A stretch of DNA of 64,000 nt from Flavobacterium sp. (GTDB lineage: Bacteria > Bacteroidota > Bacteroidia > Flavobacteriales > Flavobacteriaceae): NCBI RefSeq assembly GCF_039916025.1, contig NZ_JBDSMB010000065.1, forward strand, positions 2,135-66,134. The letters are read 5' to 3'. Numbering within the stretch: position 1 is the stretch's first letter; every line of letters starts with the position of its first letter. This document shows positions 1,349-53,023 of this stretch, one piece after another. Both the position numbers and the translations under genes were made by a program. Under the pieces are notes generated by a model. It searched no databases. It was given only the letters and a program-made list of their open reading frames with translations, and was not told the DNA's origin.

Positions 1349-2023
1349 TTGATGATAGATAGTGACCAATTTAATGAAGAATTAGGCGAAAATCATATTG
1401 CAACAAGTGCACAGAATCCTGTAAGAAATGATGCGTTTACTTTATCCGATGAACAAAAAATTGAACAAATAAAAAAAGATGTTGAAAATATCCTGCACAC
1501 ACTGGGAATGGATTTAACAGATGATAGCATAAAAGGAACACCAAATCGTGTTGCTAAAATGTTTGTCAAAGAAATTTTCGGAGGATTAAATCCAAATAAA
1601 AAACCAAAAGCTTCCACTTTTGCCAATAACTACAAATATGGTGAAATGCTGGTCGAAAAAAACATCACCCTCTACTCTACTTGTGAGCATCATTTATTAC
1701 CAATAATCGGTAGAGCGCACGTTGCCTATATCTCTAACGGAACGGTTGTAGGACTTTCTAAAATGAACAGAATTGTAGATTATTACGCCAAAAGACCTCA
1801 GGTTCAGGAGCGTTTAACGATGCAAATTGTTCAGGAATTACAACAAGTTTTAGGAACTGAAGATGTGGCTTGCGTCATTGATGCCAAACACCTTTGCGTA
1901 AATTCACGCGGAATTCGTGATGTTGAAAGCAGCACGGTGACTTCTGAATATGGAGGAAAATTCAATGACGAACAAACCCGCAGAGAATTCCTGGATTACA
2001 TCAAATTAGACACCGAATTTTAA
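1349..2023 (+). CDS. folE: GTP cyclohydrolase I
   Basis: [35 protein letters not shown] and HLCVNSRG motifs. Confidence 0.97.
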
Positions 2024-2124
2024 TAGCCCAGATTGACGCGACATCCTTTATTTTTAGGATTGGCCTTTGTGCCAACAAAGGCCAATCCTAAAAATAAAGA
2101 TATAGCAGAAAGCTGGAAATAGCT
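2024..2124. repeat. Intergenic REP-like element with a perfect 25-bp inner hairpin
   Basis: Stem 2046-2070/2075-2099 with 4-nt loop; flanks TAGCCCAGAT..ATCCTTT and AAAGAT..AGCTGGAAATAGCT are homologous to the reverse complement of 52927-53003. Confidence 0.8.
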
Positions 2125-5388: not shown

Positions 5389-6429
5389 TTATTCTTCTTC
5401 GTTTGCATTTGACTTAGCGTAATTGCGCCATTTCTCGATACAATCTGTCATATCTTGTGGCAATTCGGTGTCAAACCGCATAAATTCTTTGGTAACAGGA
5501 TGTACAAATCCCAATGTTTTTGCATGTAATGCCTGTCTTGGCAACGTCTTAAAACAATTGTCTATAAACTGTTTGTATTTGGTAAAAGTGGTTCCTTTCA
5601 AAATCAAATCACCGCCATAACGTTCGTCATTGAATAAAGTATGCCCAATATATTTCATGTGCACACGAATCTGATGCGTTCTTCCGGTTTCCAATTTGCA
5701 GGAAACCAACGTAACATAACCAAAACGCTCCAAAACTTTATAATGTGTAACTGCATGTTTTCCAATATCGCCTTCAGGAAAAACAGCCATTTGCATTCTG
5801 TCTTTCACGTGACGCGCAATATTGCCTTCTACGGTTCCTGACTCTTGTTTTACATTTCCCCAGACCAACGCAATATATTCACGTTCCGAAGTTTTGTCTT
5901 CGAATTGTTTTGCCAGATGCGTCATCGCCTGCTCTGTTTTGGCAACGACCATAAGTCCGGAAGTGTTTTTGTCAATTCGGTGAACCAATCCTGGTCTGTC
6001 GCTTGAATTCTTTGGCAGGTTTTCAAAATGAAAAGCCAGAGCGTTTACTAATGTTCCTGTATAATTTCCGTGTCCGGGATGAACAACCAATCCTGGTGGT
6101 TTATTGATAACCAAAAGCGATTCATCTTCATAAACAATATCAAGTGGAATATTTTCGGGAAGTATCAGGTTTTCAAATGGCGGATGTGACAACATCACAC
6201 GCACCACATCAAAAGGCTTAACGCGATAATTTGACTTTACCGGAATATCGTTCACCCAAATGTTTCCATCTTCGGCAGCTTTCTGAATTTTATTTCGGGT
6301 TGAATTAGCAACCAATTGCATCAGGAATTTATCGACACGCAACAACGATTGTCCTTTGTCAGCAACATGTCGGTGGTGTTCAAATAATTCCTCTTCTTCT
6401 AATTCAGGCGTATCGTTATTATTGAGCAT
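5389..6429 (-). CDS. rluD: RluA-family pseudouridine synthase (RluD-like)
   Basis: N-terminal S4 domain (RVDKFL), PGLVHRIDKNTSGL and LETGRTHQIRVH motifs. Confidence 0.92.
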   Translation of the reverse strand: MLNNNDTPELEEEELFEHHRHVADKGQSLLRVDKFLMQLVANSTRNKIQKAAEDGNIWVNDIPVKSNYRVKPFDVVRVMLSHPPFENLILPENIPLDIVYEDESLLVINKPPGLVVHPGHGNYTGTLVNALAFHFENLPKNSSDRPGLVHRIDKNTSGLMVVAKTEQAMTHLAKQFEDKTSEREYIALVWGNVKQESGTVEGNIARHVKDRMQMAVFPEGDIGKHAVTHYKVLERFGYVTLVSCKLETGRTHQIRVHMKYIGHTLFNDERYGGDLILKGTTFTKYKQFIDNCFKTLPRQALHAKTLGFVHPVTKEFMRFDTELPQDMTDCIEKWRNYAKSNANEEE

Positions 6430-7036
6430 CTACTTCGGGCATTTTTGTGGTATCAACTTCGGTAGTATCAACAGTTTCTTCATAAGTGATTTTTCCATCA
6501 CCAAGAACCAAGTCAATTTTGGATGATTTCAGGATTTTATCACCAGCTTTTAGTTTCTTTCCGTTCTGGCGCAATTCAAGAACCATATCTTTTCCTAAAT
6601 AAGGCTTATAGGTAATCTCTCCTTCTAACAAACCTACAGCTTCAAGTGTTGGAACTGCCTGACGATAGGTTTTCTCAATCAAATCAGGTAAGCTGACCAT
6701 CGTATATTTTGAAGCGTTTATTTTGATATAAATCTTTCTTCCTTCTTTTACTTTTGCACCAGCTTTTGGCTCTTGATCAACTATAGTCAACTTTGGAAAA
6801 TCAGGTCTGAAATCAACAGTGTCAAGGATTATATAATCTAAATCGATAGCGCTTAATTTTTCTTCAGCCTGTTCTGCAGAAAGTCGGGCCAAATCAGGAA
6901 CTGTAATTTCCTGTCCGTGATGTGTGGTATAAGTTATCCAATGAAAAAATAAATATGCGATAGCGGCAAAAATTGCCATAGCGGCAAGAATTTGGGCAAA
7001 AAAAACTCGACTTGTTAAATACGCACGTAAACTCAT
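6419..7036 (-). CDS. PASTA-domain membrane protein
   Basis: One TM helix then VPDL/LPDL PASTA repeats; start set at ATG 7036 because TATCTTTG (-7) lies on the minus strand at 7055-7062. Confidence 0.85.
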   Translation of the reverse strand: MSLRAYLTSRVFFAQILAAMAIFAAIAYLFFHWITYTTHHGQEITVPDLARLSAEQAEEKLSAIDLDYIILDTVDFRPDFPKLTIVDQEPKAGAKVKEGRKIYIKINASKYTMVSLPDLIEKTYRQAVPTLEAVGLLEGEITYKPYLGKDMVLELRQNGKKLKAGDKILKSSKIDLVLGDGKITYEETVDTTEVDTTKMPEVDAQ

Positions 7037-7099
7037 AAAGAAATTTAATTTGCACAAAGATATAAAAAACATAAAGGTATTTGGTTTCAAAAAAATTGA

Positions 7100-7107
7100 T
7101 AATTTTG
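7100..7107 (+). promoter_or_regulatory. -7 promoter element for ddl
   Basis: TAATTTTG matches TAnnTTTG. Confidence 0.45.
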
Positions 7108-7128
7108 TTTAAACTAAAACTTACCTAA

Positions 7129-8115
7129 ATGAACGTAGCAGTAGTAATGGGTGGATATTCAGATGAATCTGTAATATCATTACGAAGTGGTCAATTAATC
7201 CTAAATCATCTTGACAAAACAAAATACCAACCTTTTGAAGTCCACGTACTTAAAGACGAATGGTATTGCGTAATCGATTCGGTAAAATATCCTGTCAACA
7301 AAGGTGATTTTACTTTTACCAAAGACAATCAGACCGTAAAATTTGACGTTGCCGTAAATACCGTTCACGGAACTCCGGGCGAAGACGGGCATTTACAAGC
7401 TTATTGGGAACTTATTGATTTGCCTTATTCGGGTTGCAATTACTATCAATCGAGTTTGACTTTTAATAAAAGAGATACACTTTCTGTGTTATCAAAATTT
7501 AATATACCAAAAGCAAAATCCATTTATATAACCAAAGGCGAAGCCATTGACGGAAAGAAAATTGAAGCCGAATTAGGTTTGCCATTCTTTGTTAAACCCA
7601 ATCAATCCGGAAGCAGTTTGGGTGTTTCGATGGTCAGCACTTTAGAAGATTTACCTAAAGCTTTAGATTTTGCTTTCGCGGAAGACAATGATATTCTGAT
7701 TGAATCCTATCTAAACGGAACCGAAGTTTCTGTCGGAGTTTTGAATTATAAAGGAGAAACCACAGTTTTGGGCATTACCGAAATTCTTTCTCAAAACGCA
7801 TTCTTTGATTATGAAGCTAAATATTTAGGAAAATCAGAAGAAATTACGCCAGCCAGAATATCAGCAGAATTAGAAAAATTGGTCGTAGAAACCGCCAAAA
7901 AAGTATATGAAGCCTTAGGAATGAGTGGTTTTTCAAGAACTGATTTCATCATCATGAATGGCATTCCACATTTTATCGAAATCAATACCAATCCTGGTTT
8001 GTCGCCACAAAGTATTTTTCCGCAACAGGCAGCGTATGCAAATATTCCATTCAGCGATTTGTTGGATAACGAAATTAAATTAGCTTTACAAAGGAAACCT
8101 ATCTGGAAAAAGTAA
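7129..8115 (+). CDS. ddl: D-alanine--D-alanine ligase
   Basis: GGYSDE, HGTPGEDG, FVKPNQSGSSLG, FFDYEAKY and EINTNPG motifs. Confidence 0.97.
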   Translation: MNVAVVMGGYSDESVISLRSGQLILNHLDKTKYQPFEVHVLKDEWYCVIDSVKYPVNKGDFTFTKDNQTVKFDVAVNTVHGTPGEDGHLQAYWELIDLPYSGCNYYQSSLTFNKRDTLSVLSKFNIPKAKSIYITKGEAIDGKKIEAELGLPFFVKPNQSGSSLGVSMVSTLEDLPKALDFAFAEDNDILIESYLNGTEVSVGVLNYKGETTVLGITEILSQNAFFDYEAKYLGKSEEITPARISAELEKLVVETAKKVYEALGMSGFSRTDFIIMNGIPHFIEINTNPGLSPQSIFPQQAAYANIPFSDLLDNEIKLALQRKPIWKK

Positions 8116-8118
8116 AAT

Positions 8119-8730
8119 ATGTTCTTCTACGGCGTAAAATCAAAATCACTAAAAAAAGGAATGTTAACCAGCATTCATTGTGATTATTGCGATGAAGACA
8201 GCGAAATGGAATATAATTTTCTTCAGAAATATTTCCATTTGTATTGGATTCCGCTTTTCCCTTTAAAAAAGAAAACAGAAGTTAGCTGTGAAAATTGTGG
8301 CCACCTATTTCAAAATAAGGAAATTACAAAAGACATCACTCAAAAATTAAATCGGGTAAAAGACCGCTACCCTACCCGAACTCCGGTTTGGGCATTCTCG
8401 GGAATAATCATTTTAGTATTATTCTTCACTTGGGCATTTTGGCAATCCGGAAGACACGAGGTTGTTGAAGGCGATTACATTAAAAATCCAAAAAAAGGCG
8501 ATATCTATTTTTTAAATTTTACACCAGGTAATTACACGACGCTGCGGATTGATAAAGTAGATAAAACCAATGTTTACTACACACTGAATGATACTTCGGT
8601 TTATAAATACACCAAAGTCTTTTTTATAGAAGATGATAAATATTACACCAACAAAAAAGGGATTTATACACGTCAAAAAATTGAGGATTTTTACAAAAAA
8701 GACAGCATCATTTCGATAAAACGAAAATAA
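8119..8730 (+). CDS. Zinc-ribbon domain membrane protein
   Basis: CDYC...FHLYWIPLFP...CENC, followed by one TM helix. Confidence 0.75.
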   Translation: MFFYGVKSKSLKKGMLTSIHCDYCDEDSEMEYNFLQKYFHLYWIPLFPLKKKTEVSCENCGHLFQNKEITKDITQKLNRVKDRYPTRTPVWAFSGIIILVLFFTWAFWQSGRHEVVEGDYIKNPKKGDIYFLNFTPGNYTTLRIDKVDKTNVYYTLNDTSVYKYTKVFFIEDDKYYTNKKGIYTRQKIEDFYKKDSIISIKRK

Positions 8731-8740
8731 GAGTAACGGA

Positions 8741-8818
8741 AATATTGCGTTCAGCGATTTGCCTGATAACAAAATAACCTTAGCTTTACAAAGGAAACCA
8801 ATTTGGAAGAAATAAAAT
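8741..8818 (+). pseudogene. Diverged duplicate of the ddl 3' end
   Basis: 65/78 nt identical, ungapped, to 8041-8118; reads NIAFSDLPDNKITLALQRKPIWKK* versus ddl NIPFSDLLDNEIKLALQRKPIWKK*. Confidence 0.9.
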
Positions 8819-11188: not shown

Positions 11189-11204
11189 GCAGCAAAGGTA
11201 AAGC

Positions 11205-11232
11205 CAATTACGAATTATGAATTATGAATTAC
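11205..11232. repeat. Heptamer tandem array AATTA(C/T)G x4
   Basis: caattacgaattatgaattatgaattac. Confidence 0.8.
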
Positions 11233-11294
11233 AAAATAAAATTTGAAATCTCGCCAAACGCCTCTTGTTTGAATGTATTATATAATTTATTTAC

Positions 11295-12038: not shown

Positions 12039-12947
12039 ATGCATCTTATTCAAAATTTCATCTCAGGAAAACGCAAATACCTGTTTGGGTTGATATTCCT
12101 TTCGTTTGTGTGTATGATCTGTGCGGCTTTCACTATGGAAGATAGTGACGGATTTGACTTTGCCAAAAGGGAAGTTTTAATCCGCAGCATCGGACACGAA
12201 CTACTTTTACAGTCGGGCGATAGCACATCAAGAGTGCTTCCGGTAAAAAAGATTGCAGCCAATGAATATCAAATCAGCTTTGAGAATGAGCTTACTTTTC
12301 AACCGAAATTGCTAATGAATACAACAAGGCGTTTGTTGTCCAAAGACCCGCTCGCACGAGATTATGTTGTTAACGTTCTGAACTGTGATGACTCAAGTAT
12401 AGCCTATGGATATGCCGTATCCAAAAATAAAAAAGATGATGTTGTAACCTGTATAGGAAGAAGACAACCCAAAGCCTGTTACATAATTAACATTAAATTC
12501 AAACCGACAGGAACAACTACAGCAAAAAATGGATATCTTTTGGGCAGCCTCTCATTTTTAGCATTTGCCGGTTTTATTTTTTTGAGATCTGCTAAGCCGC
12601 GAAAAACTTTACCTGACGGTCAACATACTAATATGTTCACTTGGGGATCGGTGTTGTTTGATGCGAAGAATCGTAAACTCATCATAAATGGAGAGACAAT
12701 AGACCTGACCGGAACAGAAGCACGTGTATTGCTCATTTTCGCATTGTCTCCCAATGTTACCATAGAGAGAAGCCGACTGCAAAAAGAGATTTGGGAAGAT
12801 GAGGGTGTTATTGTGGGACGAAGTCTGGATATGTTCATATCTAAACTTAGAAAAAAATTAGAAGTAAATCCCAATATCAAAATTGTTGTGATACGCGGAA
12901 AAGGATACAAACTTGAAATTACACCCGTACAGGCAATTACGAATTAA
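12039..12947 (+). CDS. Membrane-anchored regulator with C-terminal OmpR/PhoB-type winged helix
   Basis: Two hydrophobic segments flank a soluble domain; C-terminal RSLDMFISKLRKKL..IVVIRGKGYKL. Confidence 0.85.
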   Translation: MHLIQNFISGKRKYLFGLIFLSFVCMICAAFTMEDSDGFDFAKREVLIRSIGHELLLQSGDSTSRVLPVKKIAANEYQISFENELTFQPKLLMNTTRRLLSKDPLARDYVVNVLNCDDSSIAYGYAVSKNKKDDVVTCIGRRQPKACYIINIKFKPTGTTTAKNGYLLGSLSFLAFAGFIFLRSAKPRKTLPDGQHTNMFTWGSVLFDAKNRKLIINGETIDLTGTEARVLLIFALSPNVTIERSRLQKEIWEDEGVIVGRSLDMFISKLRKKLEVNPNIKIVVIRGKGYKLEITPVQAITN

Positions 12948-12975
12948 AAATTACGAATTACGAATTAGGAATTAA
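12934..12975. repeat. Heptamer tandem array AATTACG x6 (degenerate)
   Basis: caattacgaattaaaaattacgaattacgaattaggaattaa; same orientation as 11205-11232. Confidence 0.8.
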
Positions 12976-12976
12976 A

Positions 12977-12998
12977 TTGAAAACGCTGTTAGTAGATT
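12977..12998. repeat. Remnant end of an attC-like cassette element (site D)
   Basis: ttgaaaacgctGTTagtag matches ttgaaaccgctGTTagcgg at 16089-16107; GTT starts 18 nt from the stop codon of 13006-13479. Confidence 0.6.
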
Positions 12999-13005
12999 GG
13001 CTTTT

Positions 13006-13479
13006 TTATGCTTCTATTTCAAAAATTTTTATAAAATCATTTTCAAGTTTCTTTTTTTTCCACTTTACAGAAAAATGTAGAAATAGCGCCAAACCAGCTA
13101 TAATTGAGTTCATTATTAAAACTATTTCAAAAGATTCCGATACACTATAAAAAGTCAAATTAAACATAACAAAAGCAATCAGCGGAAAGTATTTGAGCCA
13201 ATAATAGCCGAATCCAATTGGTTTTAGTTCGTAATTTATTTCTGTTTGGTTATTTTTTTTTGATTTGAATTCTCCTGAAATTATAAATGGAGTCGCATAA
13301 ATAATAGTATTTTTAGTTAATTCAAATTTTGTTTTATTGTATGTGCCAAAGAATATTTTCTCAGACTCTCCAAACGCATAAAAGACAGAAAATGGAGTTC
13401 CTAATATCCTTGGACTTCCATACTTGGTGTTTTTATTTAAACGTTCGCTAAATTCTGCAGGGTTTATTTTTGAAATCAT
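13006..13479 (-). CDS. Hypothetical membrane protein (cassette-like)
   Basis: Two C-terminal TM helices; low GC. Confidence 0.7.
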   Translation of the reverse strand: MISKINPAEFSERLNKNTKYGSPRILGTPFSVFYAFGESEKIFFGTYNKTKFELTKNTIIYATPFIISGEFKSKKNNQTEINYELKPIGFGYYWLKYFPLIAFVMFNLTFYSVSESFEIVLIMNSIIAGLALFLHFSVKWKKKKLENDFIKIFEIEA

Positions 13480-14126
13480 TTCTGGTTTTTACTATCAGGA
13501 AACAATTCCTGCGTACGTTTTTCCATTTCACAGGCAATTATTTCTCCGTCGCCACCTTGTTCTGTAAGTTTTGCTTTGATGTTTTTGTAGCTTTCGGCAT
13601 CTCTGTCCTGACTCAATTTAAAAACATGTTCTAATGATGTTACTTCGATTTCAAATGCGACAATCAACTTCATGAGTTTTTGTTTAAACGCTTCATCAAC
13701 ATTGTCAAAATAGGTAGATGATTGTTTGTTATAGCCTTCAAAATGAAGCGTGGTTTTTCTAAGTATGTCAATCAGCGCTTCATCATCTAAAAACTTGATT
13801 AAACCTTTGGCGTGGACCGACATATAATTCCATGTAGAAGCCATATGTGGATTGCTGTACCAGGTCGCGCTGACATAAGTATGATGTCCGGTAAAAACCA
13901 CCAATACATTAGGATTGTGCAAAAACGTCAAATGGTGATCGGTGTTTTTCATGATATGTCCACGCAATATTTTCTTTCCGTTTTCTTCTTCAATAAATAC
14001 CGGAATTTGTGTAGCAATTGGTTTGTTGTCTTTATCGCAACCTGAAATAAACGCAAACGGATTATCGTTTATAAACTGTTTGATTACTTCATCGTTTTTT
14101 TCTTTATAGTCTGGAAGATCGTACAT
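13476..14126 (-). CDS. FMN-binding negative transcriptional regulator (PaiB family)
   Basis: FINDNPFAFI, GHHTYVSATWY, STWNYMSVH and FKLSQDR motifs; start set at MYDLP (14126). Confidence 0.88.
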   Translation of the reverse strand: MYDLPDYKEKNDEVIKQFINDNPFAFISGCDKDNKPIATQIPVFIEEENGKKILRGHIMKNTDHHLTFLHNPNVLVVFTGHHTYVSATWYSNPHMASTWNYMSVHAKGLIKFLDDEALIDILRKTTLHFEGYNKQSSTYFDNVDEAFKQKLMKLIVAFEIEVTSLEHVFKLSQDRDAESYKNIKAKLTEQGGDGEIIACEMEKRTQELFPDSKNQK

Positions 14127-14163
14127 GGTGATTTTTGTTACGAGTAAAAATTGTAATGAGTTA

Positions 14164-14185
14164 TTGGACAAACTGCTGTTGTGCT
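14164..14185. repeat. Remnant end of an attC-like cassette element (site C)
   Basis: ttggacaaactgctGTTgtgc fits the AAACnGCY-GTT end of elements A and B. Confidence 0.55.
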
Positions 14186-14213
14186 TTGGCTTTGTGTGTT
14201 TTAAATTTCTAAC

Positions 14214-14639
14214 TTATGTTATTTTTATGTTATTGTTGATTTCCAATATTTTATTTATAAAAATGTCATTCGTTTCTGGACTAATATAAATTACTTCAAA
14301 TTTTCTATATTTTAAAATTAATCCATTTCTTGCAGTTGCTGGTTTTAAACCTGACCAAAGGGTTTTGGCTTTCATGATTTCTGTAATTTCTTCGATTTTT
14401 ATTTTCCCTCTTATTGGACCACTTTTATATTTTAATTCTGTTTCAGACAATTCATATTCAGTTCCGAAATACAACCAAAATAATAGACCAATCAACATTA
14501 CCATTAAAATAGCTGTGAATATAAATTCAAATTTTTCTCTTTGAAAAAATATTTGAATTAGAATAATTGCGATAAACAATCCACTTAGTCCTAATACAAA
14601 AAATTTAAAAAAATTATCTTTTCTACTTTTGAATTTCAT
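14214..14639 (-). CDS. Bacterial PH-domain membrane protein (cassette)
   Basis: MKFKSRKD start, two TM helices, TEYELSETELKYKSG..KIKIEEI..GLKPATARNGL..IYISP. Confidence 0.8.
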   Translation of the reverse strand: MKFKSRKDNFFKFFVLGLSGLFIAIILIQIFFQREKFEFIFTAILMVMLIGLLFWLYFGTEYELSETELKYKSGPIRGKIKIEEITEIMKAKTLWSGLKPATARNGLILKYRKFEVIYISPETNDIFINKILEINNNIKIT

Positions 14640-14652
14640 CTCTATTTTTTTA

Positions 14653-14794
14653 GGTTGCACACAACGTTCAAGCGCTTGGCAAGGTTGCAAATTTCGGAAC
14701 AAATTATTTTCTGTTAAAGATAAAAAATCTTGATAAACGTGACGTGAACTTACCGCAAAATTCGCATTCTTGCCAAACGGCCGTTGGTGGCAGT
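14653..14794. repeat. Complete attC-like element A
   Basis: AAC(14663-65), 117 nt, GTT(14783-85); inner stem TTGGCAAG/CTTGCCAA; homologous to element B. Confidence 0.8.
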
Positions 14795-14797
14795 TTT

Positions 14798-15910
14798 TTA
14801 TTGTATTGCTTTAATGAATTTTTTCATTTCGTCCATTTTACCAACTGTAATCCTTGTCCATTTACCTTGCTCTTCATAAATTCTTCCCCCTTGAATAGTA
14901 TTGTTTTCTAATTGCTTGAAATAGTCCTTGCTATATTTTGCAAGTGAAAAATAGATAAAATTTGTATTAGAAGAAATGCACTCACAATTTAATTTTTTGA
15001 GTTCGCTGATAGTATATTGTCTTACATTTTCATTTAGCAAGTAGCAATTTGAAACAAATTTATCATCTTTCAACGAAGCTATGGCAGCAAGTTTTGATAA
15101 TACACTAACGCTATTATTTGTATTGGATTGCAAATTTGCCAAATTATCAATTATTGTTTTGTTCGCAATTGCATACCCAATCCGTGCTCCAGCCAAACCA
15201 TATATTTTGGAAAATGTTTTGGCGATAATAATATTTTTGTGGTCATTTACGATATTGCTAAGGGATTGCTGTTTAGTAAAGTCCAAATATGCCTCATCAA
15301 TTAATACAATTGTATTTTGTGAAATCTTGGTTACAAATTCTACCAATGCTTCTCTTTCACAAATTGTTCCTGTTGGGTTATTTGGATTACAGATATAAAC
15401 AAGTTTTGTATCTTGGTTTACAACTTCCAACATAGCTTGCAAATTAATTTTCTTGTCTGCAGTAAGTGGTACATTATTTTTCTTTAAACCTAAATTATCT
15501 AATGTAACTGTCCAATAATCATAGCTTGGGTCTGCGATTACATAATTTCCTTTGTCAAGTGATACAAATTTTGCAACCAAATCTAAAATTTCAGTTGAAC
15601 CAGCTCCCAACAATATGTTTTCATCTTTAACACTATTTCTTTTTGCAAGGTCAGAAATCAGTTGTGTCGCAACATCCCAATTATATCGGTTACTAATATT
15701 CGCATTGTCTACAAATGCTTTCCTTGCTAATGGAGATGGACCATAGGGGTTTTCATTTGAGCGTAAAAAAATTAAGTTATCATGATTTTCTAAATTCTCA
15801 AAAAAGTCTTCTGAGATAACAGGAGATGCATAAGATTTTACATTTGTCAATCCAATGCCTGCAATTCCTAATCCAATTTGTTTTAACCAAAGTCTTCTGC
15901 TATTTTCCAT
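14798..15910 (-). CDS. PLP-dependent aminotransferase class I/II (HisC-like) with a Tat-like signal (cassette)
   Basis: SNENPYGPSP, YICNPNNPTG, IDEAY and KTFSKIYGLAGARIGY motifs; N-terminal SRRLWLK. Confidence 0.88.
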   Translation of the reverse strand: MENSRRLWLKQIGLGIAGIGLTNVKSYASPVISEDFFENLENHDNLIFLRSNENPYGPSPLARKAFVDNANISNRYNWDVATQLISDLAKRNSVKDENILLGAGSTEILDLVAKFVSLDKGNYVIADPSYDYWTVTLDNLGLKKNNVPLTADKKINLQAMLEVVNQDTKLVYICNPNNPTGTICEREALVEFVTKISQNTIVLIDEAYLDFTKQQSLSNIVNDHKNIIIAKTFSKIYGLAGARIGYAIANKTIIDNLANLQSNTNNSVSVLSKLAAIASLKDDKFVSNCYLLNENVRQYTISELKKLNCECISSNTNFIYFSLAKYSKDYFKQLENNTIQGGRIYEEQGKWTRITVGKMDEMKKFIKAIQ

Positions 15911-15970
15911 ATTTCCTTTTTTTTAATTTGACTTTAAAAAAATAGTTTGTTACAACCGCAGAGTGTTAAA

Positions 15971-16114
15971 ATTGCCACCAACGTTCCGACGCTACAAGAA
16001 GTGGCGAACTTCGGAACTGCATATTTTCCACTAAGATAATTTTTCTTGCGAAAGAAAAATATGAATTTAGCAGATTTCTCGCCATTTCTTGAAACCGCTG
16101 TTAGCGGTTCGTGC
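15971..16114. repeat. Complete attC-like element B
   Basis: AAC(15980-82), 117 nt, GTT(16100-02); inner stem CAAGAAgTGGCGA/TCGCCAtTTCTTG. Confidence 0.8.
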
Positions 16115-16116
16115 TT

Positions 16117-17445
16117 TTATTGTTTATTTTTCATTACAATTTCTTTCACGCCTCCTTTTGTCAAAATTATAGAATTGTAGATGCCTGATTTATCCTTTAT
16201 AAGTTCTATTGTTCTGTCATTATTGTTGGCTTTAAAAAATTTCGTTTGTGATTCGGGCAAAAGTTCTGTTTCTGAATTGTTATAATATAGTTTTTCTCCA
16301 ATTTTGATTATTTCAATTTCTCCATACTTGCCTATGTATTTATCATAAATTGAATTGTCTATTTTAGTTTGATAATGTTTGTATGGAAGTTCTATCGGCA
16401 TTTGTAAGGCAATTGCAGAAAGCCCATAAGCAATTATGTACGAAAATGATTCATTGTTAGAAAGTACTGTTACAAAAAGACTATCATCTGTAAATCGGTT
16501 GAGTGAAGTCATTGCTCCAAAAAAACCACCGTCATGAGAAATAAGTTGATGCCCATGATTATAAAATGGATTAATAATAAAACCATATCCCCAATTTTCT
16601 TTGCTATAAGGCGTAAACATTAGTTTTTTCATTTTCTCTGACAAAATTGTTGTTCCATAAAGTGCTTTATCCCATAGGGCTAAATCTTCAACGGTAGAAT
16701 AAACTCCATCATGTCCAATATTGATTTTCCAATTTATATAAGGGTTGTTTGTGTATTTATTATCTTCTAAAATATAATTTTTAGCCTTTTTAGGAATCAA
16801 GATTTCGTTGGTAATCACTCCAGAGTTTTTCATTCCCACTTTTTCAAATATATGTTTGTTTAAATAATCGGCGTATTTTTCTCCTGAAACTTTTTCTATA
16901 ATTTTTGCTAATAAATAATAACCAATATTGCTGTATGCCGTTTTTGTGCCAGGCGAAAATTCATAAGGCATTTTTTTAATTTCATTGTATGCAGAATCTG
17001 CAGACATACTACTTGTTGCTATTTCTTTAAAACCCATTGCAAGGCCTGAAGAATGAGATAATAACATGTGAATTGTGACGCTATCTGCTTTAGGATAATC
17101 TGGGAAGAACTGACTAAGTTTATCATTAAGCGAGAGTTTTCCTTTTTCTACTAATTGAAGAATTGCAGCCGCTGTAAATTGTTTAGTGACCGAAGCCAAT
17201 TGATATTTTGTATCAATTGTATTTTTAATATTCCATTCATAATCTGCTAAACCATAAGCTTTTTTTAGTAAAATTGAACCGTTTTTTGTAACAATAACTG
17301 TTCCGCTGAAATTATTTATTTCGACTTGAGCTTGCATATATTTTGCAAGATTAGTTGATATGTTTTTTTGTCCAAAAATTATTGTTGGAAGAAGAATTAA
17401 AATTAAAGCGATTCCTAATTTTGCGGTTTTACGTATTTTTTTCAT
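16117..17445 (-). CDS. Serine hydrolase, beta-lactamase/PBP-like family (cassette)
   Basis: Signal peptide; SxxK (ASVTK), YxN (YSN) and HDG motifs. Confidence 0.88.
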   Translation of the reverse strand: MKKIRKTAKLGIALILILLPTIIFGQKNISTNLAKYMQAQVEINNFSGTVIVTKNGSILLKKAYGLADYEWNIKNTIDTKYQLASVTKQFTAAAILQLVEKGKLSLNDKLSQFFPDYPKADSVTIHMLLSHSSGLAMGFKEIATSSMSADSAYNEIKKMPYEFSPGTKTAYSNIGYYLLAKIIEKVSGEKYADYLNKHIFEKVGMKNSGVITNEILIPKKAKNYILEDNKYTNNPYINWKINIGHDGVYSTVEDLALWDKALYGTTILSEKMKKLMFTPYSKENWGYGFIINPFYNHGHQLISHDGGFFGAMTSLNRFTDDSLFVTVLSNNESFSYIIAYGLSAIALQMPIELPYKHYQTKIDNSIYDKYIGKYGEIEIIKIGEKLYYNNSETELLPESQTKFFKANNNDRTIELIKDKSGIYNSIILTKGGVKEIVMKNKQ

Positions 17446-17598
17446 TAAAGTTTGAAATTATTTTAGTTAGTATTTTGTCAATTAATTCAACTCATTTTCT
17501 AATAATCTTTTAAGAATTGCATGTTTTTTATGTTTATGATAAGAGTTAATAATTCAATTGCTTTTTGAAGTACAAAGTTTAGAAGTGACTAAAATTTT

Positions 17599-18633
17599 CT
17601 ACAATTGTGATTCTAATTTTAAAATGCGTGCTTTAATTTCATCAGCAGTTAATTCCATTTTAGTATTTGTTTTCAATAAATTTTCAAGTGCAATAATTTG
17701 AGCTTTTATTAACGCTTTTTCAGAACTTATTTTTATATCAGTATCAATACCGATATGTTCCCAATTAGTATTTGTGATTGAGCTTTTTTCAATTGAAACT
17801 GGTATAAATAAATGATATTTGTTGCCAATAAAAAACACTTTTACTGGATTTGCCGCACCATATGTTTTATCTCCAATTATTTTTGCAATTTTATTTTGTT
17901 GTAAATCATATGCTAAAGCTTCAGCAGCAGAAATAGTTTTGTTATTTACCAGAATAAATACGGGTTTACCTATATACTTTTGACCGTTCACTTTTTTCGC
18001 CGTGTAAGCTTTTGTGGTTTTATGATTATACCTTGTATAAGCCTCGCTTAATTTTATTTTATTTTCAAAAAAGTAACTTAAAAAAAGTCTTACCATTTTG
18101 CTATCTCCACCTCGATTGTTTCTTAAATCTATAATCAAAGCGTTTGTATTTGAAACAAAATTCATTGTAGCATCTAAAATTTGTTGAGCAGGTTTATTTC
18201 CTTCGGGAAATCCGGTATATTCAATGTAACCAATATTCCCATCTAATCTCATTACTTTTTCAAAGCCATAATTCCATTGTTTATTAATAGCATCATATTC
18301 TTTTAGCATTTCCTTTTCATTAACTACTTTTTCTTCTTCTTCATTTGGACGGTATAACACATTGAAATGCAAATCATTTCCGTTTTTGGTTAAATAGTTG
18401 GAAAGCGATTTTGCAAATTCTTTATCAGTAAGATTATCAAAAGTTTTAAGTTCTATTTCTGATTTTAATTTTTTAGAAAGTTGATTTGCCACATCTTCGA
18501 AAATGTAGTATTCATTAATGTTATCGGCTATTTCAATTATTTGTTTATTTCGTTCAGTCAAATCCTGAGCATTTGTTTTTAAGTAGAAACTGCTAACAAG
18601 GCTAAGTAATAATAGATTAAATACTATTTTCAT
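17599..18633 (-). CDS. S41-family peptidase
   Basis: GNIGYI, LIIDLRNNRGG, TISAAE, IIGDKTYGAAN and WEHIGI motifs. Confidence 0.9.
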   Translation of the reverse strand: MKIVFNLLLLSLVSSFYLKTNAQDLTERNKQIIEIADNINEYYIFEDVANQLSKKLKSEIELKTFDNLTDKEFAKSLSNYLTKNGNDLHFNVLYRPNEEEEKVVNEKEMLKEYDAINKQWNYGFEKVMRLDGNIGYIEYTGFPEGNKPAQQILDATMNFVSNTNALIIDLRNNRGGDSKMVRLFLSYFFENKIKLSEAYTRYNHKTTKAYTAKKVNGQKYIGKPVFILVNNKTISAAEALAYDLQQNKIAKIIGDKTYGAANPVKVFFIGNKYHLFIPVSIEKSSITNTNWEHIGIDTDIKISSEKALIKAQIIALENLLKTNTKMELTADEIKARILKLESQL

Positions 18634-18637
18634 TTTT

Positions 18638-19075
18638 TTAGATTTTACAATTAGTAATTATTTTATTTAAAGTTTTATTGAGTAAATCAATTTCTTCCAA
18701 TGACAACCCATTTAGTGCTGTTTTTCTGTTTGTTTGGATAATTGGCGACAATAATTCAATTGTTTTTTGTCCTTTTTCTGTGATTTCAAGGTTAAATTTT
18801 CTTCTGTCTAATTCGTTTATTTTTCTTGTCAGATACTCTTTTTTCACCATTAGTTCAATAATTCTAGTAATTGAAGTATTGTCTTTAAAAATCAATTCAG
18901 CTATTTCCTTTTGAGAATAATTAGGATTTTTATTAAGCACAATTAATAATAGACATTGGTCAACTGTTATATCATTTACAATTCTCCCTATGTTTTTCTG
19001 TGAAATTTTTCTATACTCTTTTATTGTTTGTTCAATTGTATAGAGGACTGTTCCTGTTGGATTGCTTTTTTTCAT
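18638..19075 (-). CDS. MarR-family transcriptional regulator
   Basis: ITVDQCLLL, SQKEIAELIFKD and DRRKFNLEITEKG motifs. Confidence 0.9.
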   Translation of the reverse strand: MKKSNPTGTVLYTIEQTIKEYRKISQKNIGRIVNDITVDQCLLLIVLNKNPNYSQKEIAELIFKDNTSITRIIELMVKKEYLTRKINELDRRKFNLEITEKGQKTIELLSPIIQTNRKTALNGLSLEEIDLLNKTLNKIITNCKI

Positions 19076-19082
19076 ATTAAAT

Positions 19083-19130
19083 TAGTTGATGTAAATATAA
19101 TTGATGCAAATATAGTTGTTGTATCAACTA
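19083..19130 (-). promoter_or_regulatory. Putative MarR operator array overlapping the -7 element
   Basis: Three 15-nt-period repeats (gttgatgtaaatata, attgatgcaaatata, gttgttgtatcaact); palindrome TAGTTG..CAACTA; minus-strand TATATTTG at 19107-19114. Confidence 0.65.
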
Positions 19131-19206
19131 AATAAAAATAATTTAACAAATTATTTTTATTTTTTAAAAAAATTGTAGTTTTTTAAATGAGATTTCTGGT
19201 GAGGTA

Positions 19207-19220
19207 GCATGACCGCTAAC
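19207..19220. repeat. Cassette boundary core site (site E)
   Basis: ACCGCTAAC (19212-20) is the exact reverse complement of GTTAGCGGT (16100-08). Confidence 0.7.
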
Positions 19221-19369
19221 ATTATATATGCGCTATTAATTTGTTTCTTCTCTTTCAAATATAATCATTAACTATTACACACGAGCAAAGCGACTGCCGA
19301 AGGAAATCATCAAACAGTTTTGTGTGAAAAATTTTTAAAAATCAAAACTCACACACAAATAAGTTGGCA

Positions 19370-19482: not shown

Positions 19483-20085
19483 CTATTTCAGCAGCCTTTC
19501 TTCTTCAAATAATAATTTGATATTTTCATACGAGTTTTTCAACGCTTCTTTTATTTGCTCGGGGTTGAGCCAAACCGCTTTTTCTATGCCTTCATTCGCC
19601 TGCGGAAATGGAATCCCATCAAATTTAGTCTGCATTTCAAACCAATGCGTGACTTTCAGTTTATACTTTCCGTTGCGTTTAAAAACATGGTAGGTTTTTT
19701 GAAGTTTTCGGGTAATGGCTAATTTGTCGACACCTGTTTCCTCTTCCACTTCGCGCATAGCAGTATCTTCAATTTCTTCTCCTCTTTCGATTCCGCCTTT
19801 TGGTAAATCCCATTTTCCGTTTCTGAAAATGAACAAAACTTCGCCTTTTTTATTAAAAACCAATCCACCTCCGGCTTTGCAAACCGGAATTTTTTCTTTC
19901 AGTTTTTTCAGAATCGCTTTTTCATCGGGATAATACAAATAAGCTTTCTGAATTTTGTTCTGAAACATTTTGATGATGACTTGCTCAAAATCAATGCTTT
20001 CCAACAAAAACAACTGAAAATCGGTCTCTTTGGCGATCTCGTTGGTTAAAAAAAGTGGTTTATCGTTGACAAAAACTTTATACAT
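19483..20085 (-). CDS. NUDIX hydrolase
   Basis: Nudix box GGIERGEEIEDTAMREVEEETG. Confidence 0.93.
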   Translation of the reverse strand: MYKVFVNDKPLFLTNEIAKETDFQLFLLESIDFEQVIIKMFQNKIQKAYLYYPDEKAILKKLKEKIPVCKAGGGLVFNKKGEVLFIFRNGKWDLPKGGIERGEEIEDTAMREVEEETGVDKLAITRKLQKTYHVFKRNGKYKLKVTHWFEMQTKFDGIPFPQANEGIEKAVWLNPEQIKEALKNSYENIKLLFEEERLLK

Positions 20086-20739: not shown

Positions 20740-20828
20740 AGAACATAGAATATAGAACAAAGAACATAGAAGAAAAAGTAAGTATTAATAACTTATCTAT
20801 TTTCTATATTCTATTCTCTATTTTCTCT
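20740..20828. repeat. Heptamer inverted-arm element (AGAACAT family)
   Basis: Left arm AGAACAT AGAATAT AGAACAA AGAACAT; right arm tctattttctatattctattctctattttct. Confidence 0.85.
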
Positions 20829-20840
20829 AAAACAAAAACT

Positions 20841-21233
20841 ATGAATTTAGAAAGCCCGAAAGTTACCATAGAAAAATCAGCACAACACATCTTTGATTCA
20901 TTGTCTGATGTAAAAAACTTTGAAAAACTAATGCCTGAGAATATTGCCAAATTTGAAGTTTTGGGTGATGATATTTTCAACTTTGGTTTAAAAGGAATGC
21001 CGGAAATCAAATTGAAGATGAAAGACAAAACTCCAAATTCCAAAGTGGTTTTAGCTGCTGCAAGCGATAAATTACCATTTACTTTAACAGCAAACATTGA
21101 TTCAGTTTCTGATTCGTCAAGCGCAGTGCAATTGCATTTTGAAGGCGATTTCAATCCAATGATGGCAATGATGATAAAAGGGCCAATCTCAAAATTCATA
21201 GAGACGTTGGCGGAGAATATGCATAAGTTGTAA
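20841..21233 (+). CDS. SRPBCC/START-like protein
   Basis: IFDSLSDVKNFEKLMP; size and pattern fit the family. Confidence 0.75.
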   Translation: MNLESPKVTIEKSAQHIFDSLSDVKNFEKLMPENIAKFEVLGDDIFNFGLKGMPEIKLKMKDKTPNSKVVLAAASDKLPFTLTANIDSVSDSSSAVQLHFEGDFNPMMAMMIKGPISKFIETLAENMHKL

Positions 21234-32223: not shown

Positions 32224-34614
32224 ATGAAGAGGATAATTAAAAAAGTGGCAGTAGTTGGCTCAGGAATTATGGGCTCAGGAATTGCTTGTCATTTTGCTAA
32301 CATTGGCTTGGAAGTTTTGCTTTTGGATATCGTTCCAAATGAACTTACTGAAATTGAAACCAAAAAAGAATTGACATTAGAAAGTAAAGCCGTTCGCAAC
32401 CGATTGGTAAACGACCATTTAGCCAATGCTTTAAAATCTAACCCATCTCCTATTTACAGCCAGAAGTTTGCCTCCAGAATCACAACTGGAAACACAACCG
32501 ATGATATGGCTAAGATTACCAACTACGATTGGATTATCGAAGTCGTGGTGGAACGCTTAGATATCAAGAAATTGGTTTTCGAACAAATTGACAAATTCAG
32601 AAAACCGGGAACTTTAGTCACTTCAAATACTTCCGGGATTCCAATTCATTTTATGAGCGAAGGACGAAGTGAAGATTTCCAGAAGCATTTCTGCGGAACC
32701 CATTTCTTTAATCCAGCACGTTATTTAAAATTATTCGAAATCATTCCAGGGCCACAAACTTCCCAGGAAGTTTTGGATTTCCTGTTTGATTATGGTTCAA
32801 AATATTTAGGCAAAACTTCGGTCATTGCCAAAGACACTCCGGCTTTTATCGGAAACAGAATCGGAATTTTCGGAATCCAGAGTTTATTCCATTTGGTAAA
32901 AGAAATGGGACTAACAATCGAGGAAGTTGATAAGTTAACCGGACCAGTTATTGGCCGTCCAAAATCGGCTACGTTCAGAACCGTTGATGTTGTTGGTCTG
33001 GATACTTTAGTTCATGTAGCCAATGGTTTATATGAAGGTGTGCCAAATGACGAAGCGCATGACTTATTTAAACTTCCGGATTTCATCAATAAAATGTTGG
33101 AAAACAAATGGCTGGGAAGCAAAACGGGACAAGGTTTCTACAAAAAAGTAGACAAAGACATCTTGTCTTTAGATTTGGATACGATGGAATATCGTCCGGC
33201 AAAGAAAGCTTCTTTCGCTACTTTGGAATTGACAAAAACCATTGATAAACCTATTGACCGATTCAGGGTTTTAGTAAAAGGAAAAGACAAAGCGGGTGAT
33301 TTCTACAGAAAAAATTTCTCTGCGATGTTTGCTTATGTTTCGAATCGTGTTCCCGAAATCACAGATGATTTCTATAAAATCGACGATGCGATGAAAGCTG
33401 GTTTTGGATGGGAAAACGGACCATTTGAAATTTGGGATGCCATTGGAGTTCAGAAAGGTATCGAATTGATGGAAGCAGAAGGTTTAAAACCGGCAGCATG
33501 GGTTCGTGAAATGATAGCTTCAGATACAACCAGTTTCTATAGTATAAAAGAAGGAAATACCTATTATTATAATATTCCAACAAAATCACAAGTTAAAGTT
33601 CCGGGACAAGACAGTTTCATCATCCTGAACAACATCCGCGAAAGCAAAAAAGTTTGGAGCAACAGTGGTGTCATCATTGAAGATTTGGGTGACGGAATCT
33701 TAAACTTAGAATTCCAATCCAAAATGAACACGATTGGTGGTGATGTTTTAGTCGGAATCAATAAAGCAATCGACCTTGCCGAAAAAGAATACAACGGACT
33801 GGTAATCGGAAATCAGGGAGCGAATTTCTCTGTCGGTGCCAATATCGGAATGATATTTATGATGGCAGTCGAACAGGAATATGAAGAACTGAATATGGCA
33901 ATCAAAATGTTTCAGGATACAATGATGCGCGTTCGTTATTCATCAATTCCTGTTATTGTTGCGCCTCACGGAATGACATTAGGTGGTGGTTGTGAAATGA
34001 CACTTCACGCAGATAAAGTTGTGGCTGCAGCCGAAAGTTATATTGGTTTAGTTGAGTTTGGTGTCGGAGTAATTCCGGGCGGCGGTGGTTCTAAAGAAAT
34101 GGCATTACGTGCTTCTGATTTGTTCCGTAAAAATGATGTGGAATTAAATGTACTGCAGGAATATTTCTTAGCTGTAGCAATGGCAAAAGTATCAACATCT
34201 GCTTATGAAGCTTTCGATACCGGAATTCTGCAAAAAGGGAAAGATATCATTGTAGTAAATAAAGACAGGCAAATCGCGGAAGCAAAAAAACATGCCTTAT
34301 TAATGGCAGAAGTCGGATACACACAACCAATCAAAAGAACTGATGTAAAAGTCTTGGGAAAACAGGCATTGGGAATGTTCTTAGTCGGAACCGACCAAAT
34401 GGTAGCGGGAAAATACATTTCGGAACACGACCAAAAAATAGCCAACAAACTGGCATACGTAATGGCTGGCGGCGATTTATCAGAACCAACATTCGTATCA
34501 GAACAATACTTGTTAGATCTTGAAAGAGAAGCGTTCCTTTCATTATGTACTGAAAGAAAAACGTTAGAAAGAATACAGTTTATGTTAACTAAAGGGAAAC
34601 CGCTTAGAAATTAG
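32224..34614 (+). CDS. 3-hydroxyacyl-CoA dehydrogenase/enoyl-CoA hydratase (FadN-like)
   Basis: GSGIMGSGIA, EVVVERLDIK, SNTSG, HFFNP and LGGGCE motifs. Confidence 0.93.
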   Translation: MKRIIKKVAVVGSGIMGSGIACHFANIGLEVLLLDIVPNELTEIETKKELTLESKAVRNRLVNDHLANALKSNPSPIYSQKFASRITTGNTTDDMAKITNYDWIIEVVVERLDIKKLVFEQIDKFRKPGTLVTSNTSGIPIHFMSEGRSEDFQKHFCGTHFFNPARYLKLFEIIPGPQTSQEVLDFLFDYGSKYLGKTSVIAKDTPAFIGNRIGIFGIQSLFHLVKEMGLTIEEVDKLTGPVIGRPKSATFRTVDVVGLDTLVHVANGLYEGVPNDEAHDLFKLPDFINKMLENKWLGSKTGQGFYKKVDKDILSLDLDTMEYRPAKKASFATLELTKTIDKPIDRFRVLVKGKDKAGDFYRKNFSAMFAYVSNRVPEITDDFYKIDDAMKAGFGWENGPFEIWDAIGVQKGIELMEAEGLKPAAWVREMIASDTTSFYSIKEGNTYYYNIPTKSQVKVPGQDSFIILNNIRESKKVWSNSGVIIEDLGDGILNLEFQSKMNTIGGDVLVGINKAIDLAEKEYNGLVIGNQGANFSVGANIGMIFMMAVEQEYEELNMAIKMFQDTMMRVRYSSIPVIVAPHGMTLGGGCEMTLHADKVVAAAESYIGLVEFGVGVIPGGGGSKEMALRASDLFRKNDVELNVLQEYFLAVAMAKVSTSAYEAFDTGILQKGKDIIVVNKDRQIAEAKKHALLMAEVGYTQPIKRTDVKVLGKQALGMFLVGTDQMVAGKYISEHDQKIANKLAYVMAGGDLSEPTFVSEQYLLDLEREAFLSLCTERKTLERIQFMLTKGKPLRN

Positions 34615-34698
34615 AAATTAGAAAATAGAACATAGAAAAAAGAATATAGACTCGCAACTGCAAAAAGTCTATTCTCTATATTCTATTTTCTATACTCT
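34604..34698. repeat. Heptamer inverted-arm element (AGAACAT family)
   Basis: TTAGAAA x3, ATAGAAC ATAGAAA AAAGAAT ATAGACT, 13-nt loop, AGTCTATTCTCTATATTCTATTTTCTA. Confidence 0.85.
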
Positions 34699-34712
34699 TA
34701 AAAAATAAAAAG

Positions 34713-52926: not shown

Positions 52927-53003
52927 AGCTAATCCGGCTGTTCGTTGCAATCTTTTCTTTTTTAAAGAAAAAAAGAAAAGGATTTCCACTGCCATCCGGG
53001 CTA
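52927..53003. repeat. Intergenic REP-like element, same family as 2024-2124
   Basis: Reverse complement reads TAGCCCGGATGGCAGTGGAAATCCTTTT..AAAAGATTGCAACGAACAGCCGGATTAGCT. Confidence 0.75.
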
Positions 53004-53023
53004 GGGCACTCTATTTTAAATTG

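Follow-up and report, generated by a model that had tools for sequence, protein, structure and literature searches.

In sedentary chromosomal integrons, attC sites form sequence-homogeneous families, such as the VCRs of Vibrio, and lie 3' of co-oriented open reading frames (ORFs). In the "reverse" integrons of Treponema/Spirochaetes, the integrase is transcribed in the direction of the cassettes and attI is found beyond its 3' end; these integrases retain the additional domain of IntI. In canonical attC sites, it is the L'' arm that holds the extrahelical bases of the bottom strand (PMC5027507), and the IntI-specific additional domain has been placed around patch III (Messier & Roy 2001, as cited in PMC9668308). 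This domain serves both the definition and the detection of integrons, which are considered rare in Bacteroidota. IntegronFinder 2.0 found one complete integron in Bacteroidota, that of Salinibacter ruber (PMC9024848), and reviews mention Bacteroidota only generically. A limited literature search gave no published description of cassette arrays in Flavobacterium/Bacteroidota. We have analysed a 64,000-nt stretch of Flavobacterium sp. DNA from a rhizosphere metagenome (hereafter, the window), in which an initial annotation made from the sequence alone had described two 117-nt spacer elements, here named A and B, and compared them to attC. Our results make it highly probable that A and B belong to the attC kind of structure-specific recombination site, and that they close the cassettes of a chromosomal integron-like array.

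Element A occupies positions 14651-14797 of the plus strand, with a 12-nt head, AAC at 14663-14665, a 117-nt body, GTT at 14783-14785 and a 12-nt tail. Element B occupies 15968-16114 of the same strand, with AAC at 15980-15982 and GTT at 16100-16102, again separated by 117 nt, so that the equal spacing noted initially was borne out. The plus strand is the one matching the family model described below and is the bottom strand relative to the genes, since all genes around A and B lie on the minus strand, and each element comes after the stop codon of a gene. The two elements are 75% identical and align without gaps. All the blocks previously listed as common to both (GTTC, TTCGGAAC, TATTTTC, GATAA, TCTTG, TGAAnTTA and AAACnGC) were present in this alignment, and the quoted stems were found in A (TTGGCAAG/CTTGCCAA) and in B (CAAGAA/TTCTTG and TGGCGA/TCGCCA). 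These stems pair in the register i+j=122, with position 1 being the first base past AAC, and the same register was confirmed family-wide. The 4-nt offset of the AAC/GTT pair, which sits at i+j=118, also proved genuine, and the unpaired bases that it had been taken to imply on one arm correspond to GTTCC on the 5' side, which faces a single T on the 3' side.

Searching the window with the covariance model (CM) of the family gave 116.4 bits for A (E 8.5e-25; 106.7 bits with nhmmer) and 127.9 bits for B (E 1.8e-27), whose DNA fold had a z of -5.9. The next independent match in the 64 kb, at 20928-21064, scored just 18.7 bits (E 0.04) and lies within ORFs; it was dismissed as a chance match, and the window thus contains exactly two full copies. 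A match of 21.1 bits at 14658-14797 is A itself on the opposite strand. The search of Rfam, which includes no attC family, returned no match to elements A/B, and neither a tRNA search nor a direct-repeat search returned anything for them. When the gene strand was inspected by eye for an outward promoter of the Bacteroidetes type (TAnnTTTG), a -7-like box TATCTTT(G/A) was present, with no TTG at the right distance.

A and B belong to a lineage-specific repeat family, as their conserved interior had suggested. A 22-nt pattern taken from this interior was used to search a collection of species-representative genomes. More than 119 loci matched, nearly all of them in Flavobacterium and many with several copies, and a profile search of those loci yielded 289 copies, up to 11 per 8 kb, which provided the collection of homologues proposed in the initial annotation. 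By this search the family is essentially Flavobacterium-specific, with a body conserved lineage-wide as in attC families of the VCR type. In an array, the copies have a single orientation, are 0.4-4 kb apart and are separated by about one ORF. In 112 of 121 units the longest ORF runs antisense to the model strand, with the element located 4-25 nt past the stop codon. Near-identical copies of the element occur in different species, and the genomes that carry arrays include F. pygoscelis I-SCBP12n (L190), F. difficile KDG-16 (L076) and F. limicola DSM 15094. Family members were also seen on contigs labelled Bdellovibrio sp. (a metagenome-assembled genome), Halpernia frigidisoli and Chryseobacterium luteum; these could represent spread beyond the genus or, for the metagenome-assembled genome, a binning error.

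We have studied the covariation of the stems in 233 copies, and then in a set of 107 diverse copies that are at most ~86% alike. In the larger set, the top ten Watson-Crick-compatible covarying column pairs (pair fraction of at least 0.84) all fell on one antidiagonal. They define three successive stems, of 4, 8 and 7 bp; a conserved C.A (96%) separates the first from the second, and a conserved G.T (95%) the second from the third. The remaining counts refer to the 107 diverse copies. RNAalifold predicted 16 pairs, all with compensatory changes, and in the 23-pair structure 90.5% of the cells were paired, compared with 72.4 ± 0.5% in shuffled alignments and 31-42% when the partners were slid. 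Double changes were observed in 20 of 20 stem pairs, and the stems covary through all four pair types. The AAC and GTT triplets were invariant in 106-107 copies. The covariation first noticed between A and B thus held in a larger alignment, with 398 double-change cells against 124 ± 8 in the shuffles. A second possible helix, in which the bulge GTTCCG would pair with the loop CGGAAC, was rejected, as it showed one-sided changes only and no compensation. In the terminal region no convincing covarying inner hairpins were detected.

The stems also differ between the two strands. On the plus (bottom) strand, G.T is found in 99 of the 107 copies at one stem position and in 38 at another, and the gene strand has A.C/C.A mismatches at those wobble positions. 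The conserved wobbles make sense on one strand only, and they favour the bottom strand. Together with the covariation through all four pair types, this supported the idea, already put forward in the initial annotation, that selection acts on a single-stranded fold. The elements form long hairpins and start 7-15 nt past stop codons, as would also be expected of REP-like or terminator-like structures, which would serve to terminate or stabilise the transcript of the preceding gene and have no role in mobility. We regard this explanation as very improbable, because the gene (minus) strand at A/B has no terminator-like site and no T-run after it, Rfam offered no match, and the G.T pairs of the antisense strand would be C.A mismatches in the mRNA. 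Such hairpins would also leave unexplained the complementarity of heads and tails across genes, the linkage to attI and to a recombinase, and the breakpoints at AAC/GTT, all of which are described in what follows.

The attC-like assignment is further supported by the cassette boundaries. The tail past GTT of one element and the head before AAC of the next are complementary at 5.67 of 7 positions, whereas the controls gave 3.19/7 for the two ends of the same element and 2.88/7 for random ends. Over 334 distinct units, the complementarity spans 12 nt and no pairing is seen past 12. Positions 1-6 of the resulting R box are Watson-Crick in 85-92% of the units, with all pair types represented, and positions 9-12 are paired in ~80%. 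Taken together, positions 1-6 and 9-12 are 78-92% Watson-Crick. At position 8, 82% of the units have G.T and 1% a Watson-Crick pair, and this obligatory G.T again favours the bottom strand. A 12-nt complementarity of the ends is the integron rule, by which an excised circular cassette rebuilds a complete R box, and the elements of the window follow it as well (GTTGGTGGC / GCCACCAAC). When the GTTRRRY/RYYYAAC core was tested, the first base after GTT was a purine in 92%, and positions 2-3 were not restricted to purines.

In 50 of the 334 units, R-box position 8 is C.T; these form a sub-class with a palindrome centred on GTT. In this sub-class (tails ..GTTCGG/GTTCGT; L008, L030, L039 and other loci), the body ends in 6-7 nt that are complementary to the tail. 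Element B itself has a small palindrome of this kind, AACCGCT-GTT-AGCGGTT, at 16093-16109.

The position of the crossover could be examined in ten pairs of homologous units located in different places. In six of them, the element on the stop-codon side is 92-100% identical and that on the start side is 54-66% identical. Retention of the stop-codon-side attC in these pairs suggests that crossover usually takes place at R', the gene-distal G|TT, as it does in integrons. Taken with a tyrosine recombinase that cuts 3' of its binding arm, this would place the bottom-strand cleavage at AA|C, by analogy with the attC sites studied in PMC5027507.

The family therefore has much in common with attC sites: the 3' place behind co-oriented ORFs, the AAC/GTT cores, a covarying imperfect hairpin of 123 nt including the cores (within the attC range), cassette ends that complete the R box, and a G|TT crossover by which the attC appears to move mostly with its upstream gene. 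It is unlike them in that the L box has no bulged bases, a 5x1 internal loop lies beside R' on the 5' arm of the bottom strand, C.A and G.T are conserved, the 15-bp R box has its obligatory G.T at position 8, RRRY is kept loosely, and some genes keep R'' but are followed by an unrelated body. No extrahelical bases were found on the L'' arm in the family; the arms differ in length only through GTTCC/T, which separates the R box from the first stem and has its extra bases on the R'/L' (5') arm.

A tyrosine recombinase of 347-349 aa recurs next to the arrays. It has Phage_integrase and SAM_4 domains (PF00589, 4e-43; PF13495, 5e-16), that is, a catalytic and a SAM-like core-binding domain, and its database names are XerD or "site-specific tyrosine recombinase/integron integrase." We have gathered 80 recombinase loci, with proteins 71-100% identical across species, and in most of them ~10 kb upstream of the gene were searched too. 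The CM gave 183 matches on the strand opposite the recombinase gene, in 48 of the 80 loci, and 182 of the 183 are downstream of the gene. The recombinase is thus upstream of the array and co-oriented with the array genes, an arrangement that resembles the "reverse" integrons of Treponema/Spirochaetes, with their co-directional integrase and an attI past its 3' end.

This distribution also bears on the possibility that the elements are non-autonomous miniature inverted-repeat transposable elements (MITEs), inserting into intergenic regions by themselves. The elements are numerous, nearly identical copies are found in different species, and AAC/GTT stand at the ends, all of which would agree with MITEs. 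Target-site duplications are absent, however, the orientation relative to genes is uniform (112/121), and the elements are restricted to arrays downstream of one recombinase gene (182/183). The flanks of one element do not match each other either; they match across the neighbouring gene instead. MITEs are accordingly an extremely improbable explanation.

Between the recombinase gene and the array lies an attI, ..CATATATACAAG|TT, located 100-103 nt past the recombinase stop codon in the consensus of 67 loci; in intact arrays its conserved end reads ..ATATACAAG|TT. The sequence is conserved up to GTT and variable directly after it, and at least eight contigs end exactly at this point, which makes this an attI with population-level variation in the first cassette. 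In the 67 loci, no dif-like pair of inverted arms was found at attI, which is conserved on one side of the crossover only. In loci L120-L199, attI contains two imperfect direct repeats, each with a hairpin, before a conserved CATAT(A/C)TAC. The hairpin stems vary by species (GTATGAC..GTCATAC, GCGCTAC..GTAGCG and GTCTGAC..GTCAGAC). These repeats may be binding sites for an extra N-terminal domain of the recombinase.

That domain was recognised in a structure model (AlphaFold, pLDDT 77) made from a database protein 91% identical to the recombinase, where it takes the form of a beta-beta-alpha-beta-beta-alpha fold of ~60-70 aa. Foldseek placed VchIntIA (IntI4; PDB 2a3v) first, with an E of 5e-16, and XerA next. 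The recombinase is like IntI (VchIntIA; TIGR02249) in this best structural match, in the matching of both sides of the catalytic domain, including the C-terminal ..SPF/L motif, and in the location of its gene, which abuts attI and the cassette array. The whole integron platform, i.e., recombinase, adjacent attI and array, is thus found in related loci. The attC-like reading of the initial annotation was strengthened by these data: the elements are 3' of co-oriented ORFs, the boundary rule is obeyed, and an attI beside an IntI-like recombinase marks the start of the arrays.

The same protein was also scored against Xer models. Its best score was obtained with the XerA model NF040815 (198-231 bits), about as good as that with IntI models; XerA_Arch was borderline, with 231.5 bits against a cut-off of 220 in one protein and values below the cut-off in the others, and the XerC and XerD scores were far under their cut-offs. 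The elements could then be duplex sites of an Xer-type recombinase, as in pdif modules or IMEX, undergoing two-strand exchange at the AAC/GTT core, with a palindrome that is incidental or binds an accessory protein. The absence of the IntI insertion, the inverted 12-15-nt ends that bound the units, and the unrelated bodies, which look as if exchange had occurred on both sides, are compatible with this. Small modules with inverted short sites and a recombinase akin to XerA, XerC and XerD are likewise found in Xer/dif, IMEX and pdif systems. Yet stem covariation through all four pair types implies selection on intrastrand pairing rather than base-specific recognition of a duplex. The G.T pairs are conserved on one strand only, both in the stem (99/107) and at R-box position 8 (82%), the conservation of attI is one-sided, with no dif-like inverted arms, and Foldseek puts VchIntIA first. 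One attI followed by an array of ~120-nt covarying hairpins with strand-specific wobbles is also unlike the 28-bp duplex of Xer/dif. We therefore consider duplex Xer sites unlikely.

If A and B are attC-like sites, the system would operate as follows. An attI just downstream of the co-oriented IntI/Xer-like recombinase would receive the cassettes, each composed of TT, a 12-nt tail, the gene(s), the complement of the 12-nt head, AAC, a ~117-nt body and G. In the excised circle, the two 12-nt cassette ends would pair and complete the 15-bp R box. The window's plus strand, complementary to the genes, would fold into a hairpin with the R box, the asymmetric 5x1 internal loop (GTTCC opposite T), a stem of ~20 bp with one conserved C.A and one conserved G.T, and the terminal region. 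The folded strand would be cut at AA|C at its 5' end and exchanged with attI or another attC, and the product would be resolved by replication, as in integrons. By this analogy we infer recombination of a single strand, the bottom one, with a possible part for the bulge and the wobbles in strand choice. In the window genome, the recombinase would presumably have to be supplied in trans, and only then would the cassettes be mobile.

The window holds a decayed, integrase-less cassette array; of the platform, only a truncated attI and the array are retained. All genes of the array are on the minus strand. Cassette 1 (15982-19219, minus strand) contains genes for a MarR regulator (18638-19075), an S41 peptidase (17599-18633) and a beta-lactamase-family serine hydrolase (16117-17445), all three assigned by Pfam, and the body of B, which is its attC-like site. 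The head of this cassette, GACCGCT-AAC (19211-19220), pairs with the tail of B (AGCGGTT). Cassette 2 (14665-15981, minus strand) is formed by TTGGTGGC.., a class I/II aminotransferase gene (14798-15910; PF00155, 7e-48), ..GCCACCAAC and the body of A, the attC-like site of this cassette. Reverse-complementing the end of A (GTTGGTGGC) gives the start of B (GCCACCAAC). Where the tail of A (GGTGGCAGTTTT) and the head of B (AAAATTGCCACC) pair, position 8 is a G.T.

The attI remnant extends over 19220-19274 (minus strand) and reads, in gene orientation, TAGTTAATGATTATATTTGAAAGAGAAGAAA[~47 nt missing]CAAATTAATAGCGCATATATAATG|TT. The G of its G|TT is at 19220, and the equivalent of the recombinase stop codon is at 19275-19277. 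It aligns with the attI of eight recombinase loci and, at the junction, is identical to that of locus L127 at 34 of 35 positions. The TATATTTGA box and the second repeat, with ..AATAGCGCATATATAATG|TTAGCGGTCAT, are retained; the missing ~47 nt would hold the first repeat. With the recombinase gene deleted and attI truncated, A and B stand as seemingly intact sites within an array that is decaying.

Two truncated attC remnants, both on the plus strand, were found further along the array. The first (14166-14183; ..CAAACTGCTGTT followed by the tail GTGC..) is beside the stop codon of a bPH_4 gene (14214-14639, minus strand; Pfam, 7e-20). The pattern AAACNGCTGTT was found only in this remnant and in B, with 0.23 occurrences expected, and the bPH_4 gene and its remnant are probably a decayed cassette 3. 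The second (GAAAACGCTGTTAGTAG, 12978-12993) is beside the stop codon of a 157-aa ORF (orf13006; 13006-13479, minus strand), whose homologue in locus L033 is a cassette gene with an element directly after it. This remnant probably marks the distal end of the array. It belongs with orf13006 and the preceding FMN_bind_2 gene (13476-14171, minus strand; Pfam), and a NUDIX gene (19483-20085, minus strand) is found on the other side of the attI remnant. The GC content is 0.29-0.30 across 14-20 kb and ~0.35 in the flanks; the decaying cassette array accounts for this 6.3-kb low-GC stretch of the window.

The cassettes of the window are shared with other environments. The aminotransferase unit was found at 90-99% identity in lake, river, soil and groundwater metagenomes, with matches that start at 14785 and end at 15983 and breakpoints thus placed exactly at GTT and AAC, and contigs of other metagenomes match B and the beta-lactamase-family gene from 15980 onward. 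The unit (G)TTGGTGGCAATTTT..gene..CTGCCACCAAC is conserved in 36 metagenome loci, and the flanks diverge immediately outside (G)TTGGTGGC and GCCACCAAC. Upstream of it there is either another attC end (..GGAAC|GTT) or attI (..TATATACAA|GTT), the cassette being in first position at attI in some metagenomes and behind other attCs in others. Downstream, attC bodies of several unrelated families follow, some of them short (~60-70 nt). In five loci (L201, L207, L208, L213 and L216), R'' CTGCCACCAAC is kept after the aminotransferase gene and the bodies, of ~60 to 130 nt, are unrelated.

Several observations weigh against the attC-like interpretation. In many loci the aminotransferase gene keeps its R'' and is followed by an unrelated body, of which at least four were seen; crossover confined to R' does not account for such replacements. 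Among the ten homologous pairs mentioned above, both bodies differ in three, with R'' kept, and one shows the reverse pattern. As a speculation, the body swaps could be caused by occasional excision via the other strand, followed by normal re-insertion. Folding of both strands, which the initial annotation had called for, hardly separated them: the energies are -19.1 and -18.7 kcal/mol, a difference of about 0.5, and element A itself folds better on the gene strand. With so small a difference, folding energy does not decide which strand folds. In the window, tblastn detected no recombinase gene in the 64 kb, and no convincing remnant of its 3' end was seen beyond the stop-codon region.

The recombinase itself adds to these points. 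With TIGR02249, four full-length proteins scored 189-214 bits, under the cut-off of 265, and a truncated ORF in locus L001 scored 96.7 bits. TIGR02249 and PRK15417 both match the protein in two stretches, with profile positions ~180-254 missing, and in comparison with VchIntIA ~20 residues (251-270) replace ~62 (180-241). The AlphaFold model has no helix between H242-255 and H273-286, where the IntI-specific domain would be. As judged from these alignments and this model, the domain, with which IntI reads the extrahelical bases, is absent, so that their canonical recognition could not apply. The protein thus differs from IntI in having ~20 residues for the ~62 of IntI4, in scoring below the family cut-off and in its extra N-terminal domain. 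The architecture is that of an integron, and the system stands outside the canonical family in its IntI domain, in the curated cut-off and in the L''-side extrahelical bases. We tentatively suggest, as a possibility falling a little short of an even chance, a widespread and so far undescribed class of chromosomal integrons in Flavobacterium, and probably in other Flavobacteriales. In this class, the IntI domain would never have been present or would have been lost, an N-terminal arm-like domain would be there instead, the strand would be chosen through the 5-nt bulge and the obligatory G.T, and attC bodies would be swapped behind R''.

Other features of the window were recorded around the array. 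A groundwater-metagenome contig that joins the beta-lactamase-family gene to MarR lacks the S41 segment (17397-18725) and has 136 other letters between them. This segment is flanked by direct repeats (17445-17490/18645-18690 and 17527-17567/18729-18769) and looks like an insertion or duplication within cassette 1. A low-depth contig of run X2 joins 12964 to 19369, bypassing the whole array and the attI remnant; one side of this junction is backed by 24 nt only, and 12932-12974 is a multi-copy simple repeat. The contig may represent an array-less variant or an assembly artefact. Repeats resembling (GAATTAC)n are found in two intergenic regions (11198-11247 and 12927-12990), one copy abutting the truncated distal attC, and many unrelated contigs of the same study match 12932-12974, which indicates a dispersed simple-repeat motif. 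The expected place of the recombinase gene, between NUDIX and the attI remnant, is occupied by a perfect inverted repeat of 15 bp (CTTCGACAGGCTCAG ... CTGAGCCTGTCGAAG; 19370-19384/19444-19458). The block at 5411-8116 is 76% identical to 6129-8814 of locus L138, where it is 1.2 kb upstream of the recombinase gene; in the window it is found distal to the array, and the array points towards it. This arrangement suggests that the recombinase gene was lost in connection with an inversion or rearrangement. In keeping with a Flavobacterium-like window, two matches to the Flavo-1 RNA (RF01705) were obtained, at 2021-2123 (plus strand, 61.9 bits) and 52927-53006 (minus strand, 79.7 bits). Paired intergenic repeats, AGAACATAGAA.. 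and TCTATTTTCTATATTCTATT.. (families D3 and D13), are located at 20740-20845 and 34606-34717.

An integron-like platform that carries no IntI domain is thus found in many Flavobacterium species and in metagenomes, with cassettes common to lake, river, soil and groundwater. If the proposed class is real, single-strand recombination of hairpin cassettes needs no IntI domain, and standard tools that require this domain underestimate integron-like platforms. An active system would extend the range of cassette capture known so far and, as a natural test case, could show which features of attC strand choice requires. Genes could then also flow by this route within a genus that is abundant in the environment and associated with fish, and the cassettes of the window include a beta-lactamase-family hydrolase and an aminotransferase.

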